A DNA stretch of 64,000 nt, taken from the sequence record PP047754; one strand, written 5' to 3'. The translations under genes and the position numbers were made by a program. Positions within the stretch are counted from its first letter, which is position 1. Each line of letters opens with the position of its first letter. Source of the DNA: Escherichia phage KEP4. Below are positions 24,730-25,392 of this stretch, in pieces. A model generated the notes under the pieces. It saw only the letters and a list, made by a program, of their open reading frames with translations. It searched no databases and was not told the DNA's origin.

Positions 24730-25392
24730 CTATGATAACTCATGGCGATGTCGAACACACGCAGGGCAATCACAATTCTTTTTCAAAATTGGCAATTCAC
24801 ACCATGTCATTAAGTCATGTATTGGGGACATGTGATGATAGAACCAAGATTTCTTGAGACTAATCAATGGATATAAAATTTCAATAGGTCTTTCCCCGTC
24901 TCTGGTCATCATGTTGTATCCTTCAATAACTTTATTAAAGGCGGGTATCCAGTGTATTGCGTCATCGCCGTTAACATATGCCAAGATATACGTGGACGGC
25001 AAGCCACTGCCTTTAAATTGCGTGTTTAATAACCATATCGGGGCTTGTGCTAAACAAGCGCGAAAACCACCGTTCGGGACGTTGATGCTACTGATAGGTT
25101 CTTGATGATGTGTCCAACGATACATGAGAAGTGGGGCATTTTTATTAATCCAGTTGTGTATTTTATTCCTCGCCCAATTTTCGCGCTTAGATTTAAATTT
25201 ATTATTTTCGAGGTGGCAATACACAGTATGAACTGAATATCCTTTCGATAACAACCAAATCAACATGTATGTGCTATCCACCCCACCAGACCAGAACAAC
25301 GTCACTTCTTGATTATTCTCCGGCAATGGAGCATCCCCTTGAAGAACACGGTATACAAAATCACAATCAGATACTGAGACAACAATTTCCAT
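24730..25392 (-). CDS. QueC-like PP-loop ATPase (7-cyano-7-deazaguanine synthase family)
   Basis: PP-loop SGGVDS plus C-terminal CDCPACVRHR Zn motif resembling QueC CGECPACHLR. Confidence 0.7.
   Translation of the reverse strand: MEIVVSVSDCDFVYRVLQGDAPLPENNQEVTLFWSGGVDSTYMLIWLLSKGYSVHTVYCHLENNKFKSKRENWARNKIHNWINKNAPLLMYRWTHHQEPISSINVPNGGFRACLAQAPIWLLNTQFKGSGLPSTYILAYVNGDDAIHWIPAFNKVIEGYNMMTRDGERPIEILYPLISLKKSWFYHHMSPIHDLMTWCELPILKKNCDCPACVRHRHELS

Follow-up and report, generated by a model that had tools for sequence, protein, structure and literature searches.

A gene of Escherichia phage KEP4 (sequence record PP047754) raises the question of whether phages of its kind carry a piece of the 7-deazaguanine pathway, or an enzyme of the same superfamily with another task. 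The window analyzed here, i.e., the whole stretch of 64,000 nucleotides under study, comes from a Kuttervirus (Ackermannviridae). Its sequence agrees with that of Salmonella phage BSP101 at 99.8% identity, and the region matches some 200 records from Ackermannviridae, most of them of Kuttervirus, at 85–99% identity. The gene lies on the minus strand at 24730..25392, as an ORF with an ATG start that encodes a QueC/Cap9-fold PP-loop ATP pyrophosphatase of 220 aa, and it is the same gene as gp015 of BSP101 and orf028 of CBA120, the CBA120 protein being 97.7% identical to that of the window. Database records name it variously “QueC-like queuosine biosynthesis,” “alpha hydrolase,” “argininosuccinate synthase,” “hypothetical” or “7-cyano-7-deazaguanine synthase,” and the first and last of these labels lead easily to the mistaken conclusion that 7-deazaguanines are made or used by Kutterviruses and many jumbo phages. 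The original prediction, made from the letters of the window, had likewise taken the protein for QueC, the preQ0 synthase, and the gene for a lone fragment of that pathway. The gene belongs instead to a mis-labelled phage clade of the QueC superfamily.

The ORF and the two motifs on which that prediction was built, a SGGVDS PP-loop and a C-terminal cysteine motif, are real and could all be located. They are not products of chance, because the window protein matches PHROG 1550 (“QueC-like queuosine biosynthesis”) with an E-value of 5e-82, HMMER recovers 1139 homologues (counted as clusters at 50% identity) and the dN/dS of the gene relative to Kuttervirus relatives is 0.03–0.15, i.e., the gene is under strong purifying selection. 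A Shine-Dalgarno-like sequence read on the minus strand, AAGAGGAA (25400..25407), stands 7 nt before the ATG. Further upstream, on the same strand, the end of a 96-aa gene is marked by a terminator-like hairpin of 7 bp, five of them GC, with a T-rich tail (25474..25491), which is followed by an extended -10-like element, TGTATAAT (25466-25459), picked out by eye; hairpin and element are consensus matches only, and a sigma-70 scan upstream of the gene did not find a full promoter.

Searches with the single protein sequence saw the PP-loop only and were rejected as classifiers, as they cannot separate QueC from ThiI or ArgG. The Pfam QueC model (PF06508) gave 23.9 bits, against a gathering score of 22, in an alignment restricted to aa 33–64 and with ThiI scoring almost equally; the QueC equivalog model TIGR00364 (NCBIfam) gave 18.5 bits against a cut-off of 150.3, over aa 33–58 only; and phmmer against the PDB matched the PP-loop alone. 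A clade profile was needed to resolve the family. When built from 65 members and run against the PDB, it recovered Bacillus subtilis QueC (3bl5, 1e-10), Pectobacterium QueC (2pg3, 2e-9) and Cap9 (9nto_B, 6e-9), with a match that spans the full length of 3bl5 and Cap9, whereas every other PP-loop enzyme, TilS, ThiI and ArgG among them, was matched at the PP-loop only, with E-values of at least 0.006. Profile-to-profile comparison of the clade with 11 canonical phage QueC proteins (hhalign) returned a probability of 98.9%, an E-value of 3e-17 and 16% identity. The protein is therefore a member of the superfamily of PP-loop ATP pyrophosphatases, which have the adenine nucleotide alpha hydrolase fold, through its SGGxDS loop, placed behind strand 1 of a Rossmann-like alpha/beta fold, and of the broad QueC superfamily (PF06508), with C198, C207, C209 and C212 aligning to the Zn cysteines of QueC and Cap9. 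To this extent the first reading holds: this is a PP-loop enzyme, and QueC is the closest among solved and curated families.

Membership of the superfamily is not identity with the enzyme. Canonical QueC is recognized by SGGxDS, YxQxHxxE, VPxRN, YPDC, K165 and C(x)8CxxCxxC (Libby et al., PMC13082051), and in the Escherichia coli enzyme the substitutions Y35A, R99A, Y131A and Y189A each abolish function (PMC13082051). The motifs for recognition of 7-carboxy-7-deazaguanine (CDG) and for catalysis have been defined in three studies (PMC13082051; 10.1101/2025.04.06.647259; PMC13279940): one face of the 7-deazaguanine is covered by the stacking Tyr of Y-x-D-C and the opposite face by the Arg of the RN pair, while the Asp of Y-x-D-C hydrogen-bonds the base and recognizes its N1 and N2 (Cap9-CdnD structure paper; QatBC paper, PMC13279940). 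We compared the clade with these motifs through three sequence alignments, one each with 3bl5, Cap9 and canonical phage QueC, which disagree on the register of the loops. All coordinates below refer to the minus strand. What the clade keeps is the PP-loop, one glutamate (E71), the lysine of PL(x)4K (K181) and the four cysteines. The PP-loop SGGVDS (aa 35–40; 25273..25290), which binds pyrophosphate and aligns to SGGxDS of QueC and Cap9, sits inside the clade motif W-S-G-G-[LV]-D-S-T, where G37, D39 and S40 are invariant in 65 diverse members and W34, S35, G36 and T41 are conserved in at least 90% of them; G51, V54, N63, N64 and E71 fall in the same invariant or at least 90% conserved class, and so do Y139, D143, A145, F174, P175, L176, K181, C198, E199, C207, C209 and C212. 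The segment F/Y174-P175-L176-x4-K181 (24850..24873) corresponds in the alignments to PL(x)4K of QueC (K165 in E. coli) and PF(x)4K of Cap9, with P175 and K181 invariant. The cluster W-C198-E199-x7-C207-x-C209-x2-C212-x-R214 (24745..24804) is the equivalent of the site at which QueC and Cap9 bind their structural Zn, and could in principle hold another ligand; the Ackermannviridae proteins are one residue short here (CxCxxC, against CGxCxxC in other clade members). Compared with QueC, they have CxCxxC in place of CxxCxxC and carry an additional N-terminal helix of 27 aa.

Elsewhere the motifs of QueC are replaced. At the place of YxQxHxxE the clade has its own N63-N64-x2-K67-x2-R70-E71 (25180..25206), which by column counts and by the alignments to QueC and Cap9 has the Glu alone in common with it, Y35 being replaced by I/L61 or N64 and the His by S/T68. 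Where QueC has VPxRN, the clade has L114-x-Q116-x-P118-x-W120 at the start of helix 3 (25033..25053), without a conserved Arg-Asn; the RN pair, whose R99 equals R86 of Cap9, falls on an alignment gap or on the variable positions 110–111, and R111 is conserved within Ackermannviridae only. Strand 4 is followed by the loop Y139-V-N-G-D143-D144-A145 (24958..24978), at the place of the deazaguanine-binding Y-x-D-C of QueC and Cap9. None of the three alignments offers a counterpart to the stacking Tyr of YPDC (Y131), and the Asp of that motif falls on L/I149 or on a gap in two of them and on D143 in that to Cap9. Finally, Y189, next to the first Zn cysteine of QueC, is a Glu in the clade (E199, in all but two of the 65 members). 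The four residues that E. coli QueC cannot do without are thus all replaced, and on these motifs the protein is not QueC proper. As D143 is invariant and, in the HMMER alignment to Cap9, lies opposite D117, with alignments that differ in loop register, the clade may nonetheless have a remodelled deazaguanine pocket that uses Y139, nearly invariant and four residues upstream, together with D143.

The database label covers both kinds of protein. QueC of phage CAjan (gp42) is in the same PHROG, with an E-value of 1.6e-80, and has the same RefSeq label of “QueC-like queuosine biosynthesis”; the CAjan protein shows the canonical motifs without exception and is encoded together with DpdA, FolE, QueD and QueE, whereas the window protein does neither, and the two proteins did not detect each other by tblastn (E up to 10) or phmmer. 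PHROG 1550 is a mixed cluster that lumps both clades, and the RefSeq label is inherited from it.

Reciprocal HMMs separated the two groups in a cleanly bimodal way: the median score of clade members was 212 bits with the clade HMM, and with that of canonical QueC they reached no more than 28, while canonical QueC proteins scored 272–364 bits on their own HMM and 15–63 on the clade HMM. The clade is also large. A word-indexed search recovered 19 close relatives only, whereas a profile run through 1.84 billion cluster representatives with HMMER returned the 1139 clusters mentioned above at E ≤ 1e-3, and 473 when the limit was E ≤ 1e-10; almost all match at full length, with about 190–300 aa. In cultured phages it extends throughout Ackermannviridae, with members in Kuttervirus, Agtrevirus-like phages, Taipeivirus, Campanilevirus YC, Erwinia phage phiEa2809 and Serratia phage 2050H1, and among jumbo phages in PS119XW, Noxifer, pVa-21, FLC4-4C and others. 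A scan of 185,579 bacterial and archaeal species genomes, one per species, yielded two relatives only, of which one is a true member, in a low-GC patch of a metagenomic chromosome; by this count the clade is restricted to phages, a restriction possibly overstated, since the scan used a single peptide pattern. Taken by its sequences, the clade is a large sister family of QueC and Cap9, separate from QueC proper. We also looked for fusions of the Rosetta-stone type, with no yield: the longer members (300–435 aa) have no second Pfam domain, most of their apparent “C-terminal extensions” lie inside the match to the clade HMM and, where checked, are insertions before the Cys cluster, and a profile built from three extensions found nothing among the ORFs of the window.

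We pulled 59 viral loci with the clade alignment, of which 56, in 43 non-redundant groups, carry true members scoring at least 100 bits. In none of the 43 was DpdA, FolE, QueD or QueE found within 10 kb by phmmer with these four CAjan proteins as queries; the sole positives, L061 and L062, are canonical QueC genes drawn in by the degenerate pattern. Eight viral loci with canonical QueC, treated in the same way as a control, had DpdA in seven, FolE in seven, QueE in seven and QueD in four. The gene is indeed “lone,” as first described: none of the four partners is in the window, and none was found in the complete BSP101 genome, either by annotation or by tblastn and phmmer with the CAjan proteins (best E 0.13).

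The chemistry of the DNA agrees with this. LC-MS of DNA from phages ViI, CBA120, CBA6 and 1.255.O detected dA, dG, dC, dT and 5-NeOmdU only, the last replacing about 40% of dT (Lee et al., 2018, PMC5889632). By these published data guanine is unmodified in ViI and CBA120; modification at trace level is not excluded. The original prediction had named two findings that would count against it, and they came apart: guanine is unmodified in these two phages, while the protein falls to no other PP-loop family that has a name. The 5-NeOmdU thymidine pathway was considered as a home for the gene and rejected, as two papers on the pathway mention no PP-loop or QueC-like enzyme. Hutinet et al. (2019) list CBA120, Vi01, SFP10, PhiSH19, GG32, 0507-KN2-1, phiEa2809, 2050H1, Noxifer, pVa-21 and others with one protein accession per phage; these match the QueC singletons of their main text, which they set aside because QueC also belongs to a superfamily of ATPases. 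The jumbo-phage paper of Iyer et al. mentions partial deazaguanine systems. Our literature search found no paper characterizing the protein.

These results bear on the possibility that the protein is a divergent but bona fide QueC, which would make preQ0 or ADG from host CDG for queuosine in tRNA or for DNA modification. The tRNA substrates could include one encoded by the phage itself, for ARAGORN finds tRNA-Ser(GCU), tRNA-Asn(GUU) and tRNA-Met(CAU) at 60.4–61.7 kb of the window, and tRNA-Asn(GUU), correctly foreseen at the outset, occupies 61131-61206; the Pfam score just above its gathering score and a QueC-like fold with a Zn site also speak for this possibility. We consider it very unlikely, given the shortfall on TIGR00364, the replacement of the four E. 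coli-essential residues, the absence of DpdA/TGT, FolE, QueD and QueE from the genome and from the vicinity of all clade members examined, the normal dG of ViI and CBA120, a host that already has QueC, and the treatment of such singletons as uninterpretable by Hutinet et al. The QueC identity first proposed is not supported, and the gene is probably not a fragment of the 7-deazaguanine pathway either.

In structure the best match is an immune enzyme. An AF2 model from the alignment of 65 sequences (pLDDT 94.9, pTM 0.92) had Cap9 as its top fold match, and YcfA (12.0), ThiI (11.5) and TtuA (11.2) came next; Cap9 was top in three structural searches, one of them with Foldseek on an earlier model. 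Cap9 is the QueC-like protein of type IV CBASS (PDB 9NTO chain B), in which Y115, D117 and R86 bind the deazaguanine. A role in the modification of a base in tRNA or DNA can also be conceived, in which a base carbonyl would be adenylated as by TilS, ThiI, MnmA and TtuA, or as by YcfA on 6-thioguanine. It seems to us quite improbable: the protein is a minimal catalytic core of 190–220 aa with no RNA- or DNA-binding domain (THUMP, the TilS C-terminal domain and the like), outside the PP-loop it resembles only QueC and Cap9 in sequence, and the one modified nucleoside in ViI DNA, 5-NeOmdU, has a pathway accounted for without this gene.

The nearness to Cap9 speaks for a deazaguanylase of the Cap9/QatC type. 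Such an enzyme would adenylate host CDG and join it to a protein of the phage or the host at the N-terminal amine, which would serve regulation or counter-defence. Enterobacterial hosts make CDG in their queuosine pathway. Besides the structural matches, the residue pair after the first Zn cysteine is “CE” in the clade as in Cap9, and “CY” in QueC; in the HMMER alignment to the Cap9 motif H(x)4YxDCxxxF, D143, D/C144 and the aromatic residue 148 can be aligned to D117, C118 and F122, so that D143 may equal D117; and the PADLOC model for the CBASS-type “QueC” matches 64 of the 65 members, against one for its QatC model. A candidate acceptor protein might be seen in an ORF of 120 aa, starting MG.. 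or MA.., that precedes the gene by about 5 bp in about 20 metagenomic loci. However, the stacking residues of Cap9, Y115 and R86, have no conserved counterpart in the clade, nor has H110. The 120-aa neighbour has no homologue in BSP101, the ORFs on either side of the gene in the window begin MKRS.. and MFFQ.., and starts with MG or MA are common anyway. Neither CD-NTase nor Cap10 (TGT-like) genes were found in the window, in the BSP101 genome or in the 20 loci whose neighbours carry Pfam annotation, and QatA, QatB and QatD were not found near the gene in the loci examined. A deazaguanylase of this type is on these grounds an unlikely reading, albeit one with specific points in its favour.

The neighbourhood offers no dedicated partner. 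The metagenomic loci just mentioned, about 20, belong to a single lineage, in which a SNF2 helicase and the 120-aa ORF come before the gene and a family-B DNA polymerase, a 211-aa ORF and NUDIX, in this order, after it, and the neighbour families of this lineage, the largest among the metagenomic ones, have no homologue in BSP101. These recurrent neighbours (the 120-aa ORF, PolB, SNF2, NUDIX and others) were therefore discarded as conserved partners, being confined to that lineage, and the largest neighbour “cluster” was an artefact in which inteins had chained unrelated genes. No partner gene conserved across phage lineages was found in the loci examined. Most of the remaining loci have the gene surrounded by genes for replication and nucleotide metabolism. 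The window and BSP101 have dCMP deaminase, DexA and topoisomerase II there, L083 has topoisomerase II, PS119XW has dCTP deaminase and ligase, Vibrio phage YC has a gp46/47-like nuclease and RNase H, and L079 has thymidylate synthase, DHFR and ligase. The window also holds a macro-domain gene, at 26824-27444.

Genes linked to ADP-ribose or NAD recur within 10 kb of the gene in unrelated lineages, and they suggest yet another role, the amidation of a pyridine or other heteroaromatic carboxylate in NAD/ADP-ribose metabolism (e.g., a nicotinate- to nicotinamide-type conversion), directed against NAD-depleting defences. They comprise NADAR (adjacent in L078; also in L046 and L054/56), DUF4326 (L077, L078, L080, L085), PARP with WGR (L077), NAMPT/NAPRTase (L081) and NUDIX (L080 and the PolB lineage), to which the macro-domain gene of the window can be added. 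NAD synthetase, itself a PP-loop enzyme, makes a carboxamide from a carboxylate in the same way. We give this role only a very slight probability.

Overall, the reading that we favour, with moderate confidence and by analogy with characterized relatives, is that of an adenylate-forming amide ligase akin to Cap9. It would work without a partner of its own from the phage, its substrate would not be CDG handled in the manner of QueC, and it would not be a preQ0 synthase. As in QueC-family and other PP-loop enzymes, ATP would be bound at SGGxDS and the carboxylate of the substrate adenylated, with release of PPi; an amine would then attack the acyl-adenylate to give an amide and AMP, in a one-step reaction of the ligase/amidase type, as in Cap9, as opposed to the two-step nitrile synthesis of QueC. 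Since neither the sandwiching Tyr and Arg nor the residues on which preQ0 formation depends are conserved, CDG handled QueC-wise is probably not the acyl substrate, and since no partner is conserved across lineages, the enzyme probably acts alone, on a metabolite or macromolecule that is host-derived or universal. A narrower version, in which large lytic phages have a Cap9-like ligase of their own, derived from QueC, that attaches a carboxylate, for instance a nucleobase- or nicotinate-like heteroaromatic acid, to an amine of a protein, a metabolite or a nucleic acid, is conceivable but doubtful.

The label of the gene matters because of the setting of the family. A clade that is separate, phage-only as far as the pattern scan tells, strongly conserved and devoid of the deazaguanine-binding residues as such turns an annotation into a question. 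The family is conserved across the sampled Ackermannviridae genera, which include phages under study for therapy and biocontrol, and is widespread in uncultured large phages. If the narrower version above is true, the enzyme would represent a new conjugation or amidation chemistry of phages, plausibly for host takeover or counter-defence, and it would mirror the use that bacterial immunity makes of Cap9 and QatC; enzymes of the QueC family have recently been shown to conjugate nucleobases to proteins in that setting.

The comparison with these two systems delimits what the phage clade may be. Cap9 is bacterial, is encoded beside a CD-NTase and Cap10, and retains both RN and YxDC (R86, Y115, D117), whereas the window protein is encoded by a phage, without such neighbours, and its clade does not have these motifs as such. 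QatC has about 400 aa with N- and C-terminal extensions, against 220 aa here, and the window protein has none of its own motifs (T278/T280 and C(x)19CGxCxxRR), nor its obligate partner QatB. The logic is nevertheless the same, that of a QueC-family enzyme with a changed CDG-recognition motif: in QatC the Y-x-D motif is replaced, and its authors proposed a substrate other than CDG (PMC13279940). By their criterion, the motif change in the phage clade points to a different substrate or reaction.

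In the window, the QueC-like gene (24730-25392, minus strand) is flanked on the same strand by two conserved Ackermannviridae proteins: a 113-aa ORF (24386-24727, minus strand; phrog_4814), with its start codon 2 nt past the QueC-like stop, and a 96-aa ORF (25490-25780, minus strand; phrog_2531), whose product has a hydrophobic N-terminus. Three genes upstream of the QueC-like gene lies a macro-domain gene (26824-27444). Within 10 kb of other members of the clade, the phage-restricted sister family of QueC and Cap9, ADP-ribose/NAD-linked genes recur, as a raw and uncalibrated tally, in unrelated large phages; the types encountered are NADAR, PARP+WGR, DUF4326, NAMPT/NAPRTase and NUDIX (at clade-bearing loci L078:8711-9148; L077:8975-10249 and 11917-12189; L080:7254-7580; L085:6797-7138; L081:2837-5766), and the macro-domain gene of the window belongs to the same set. 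A DUF4326 gene is also present in the closely related Salmonella phage BSP101 (117651-117980), but at a distance of 108 kb from the QueC-like gene. Inteins, with Hint and LAGLIDADG homing-endonuclease domains, were found inside AAA-ATPase and SNF2-helicase genes adjoining clade members (L012:6442-8475; L016:7350-9992), and because these inteins chained them, unrelated neighbour genes fell into one BLAST cluster.

In a single metagenomic phage lineage, a 120-aa ORF (L018:9657-10022) ends about 5 bp upstream of the QueC-like gene. Across L018 and 20 homologous loci, including L019, L024 and L028, its product begins with MG (13 of 21) or MA (8 of 21) and with no other start; the conserved stretch x-Y-x-W-x-x-N-P-F-[QR]-D comes next. 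Gly or Ala exposed at the N-terminus would be in keeping with an acceptor of the type served by Cap9, the QueC-like protein of type IV CBASS that ligates CDG onto a protein N-terminal amine. Searches of this ORF against Pfam and PHROG returned nothing above threshold, the only match being a sub-threshold one to DUF4116 (E 0.0096), and no homologue of it was found in BSP101.

Among cellular genome assemblies, the sole strong clade member found (219 bits) lies on a 4.2-Mb metagenomic chromosome (OW818669.1; L073:7896-8582). The GC content around it falls from about 0.51 to 0.43-0.47, and this stretch may therefore be a prophage or an island. A protein 100% identical to the QueC-like protein of this Salmonella Kuttervirus is encoded in a 111-kb GenBank record named 'Enterococcus phage Efm 3-10' (OR844942.1, 95198-95857), for which a wrong label or contamination is probable.

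The window also carries a tRNA with anticodon CAU (61620-61695), called as tRNA-Met, whose identity may be that of an initiator, of an elongator tRNA-Met or of a lysidine-requiring tRNA-Ile2. The lysidine of tRNA-Ile2 is the product of TilS, likewise a PP-loop enzyme.

Within the clade, Ackermannviridae members are set apart by two features. They carry an extra N-terminal helix (aa 8-17, within residues 1-27), confident in the predicted model, that all other members lack, and their Zn motif (residues 207-212) reads CxCxxC, one residue shorter than the CGxCxxC of the other members.
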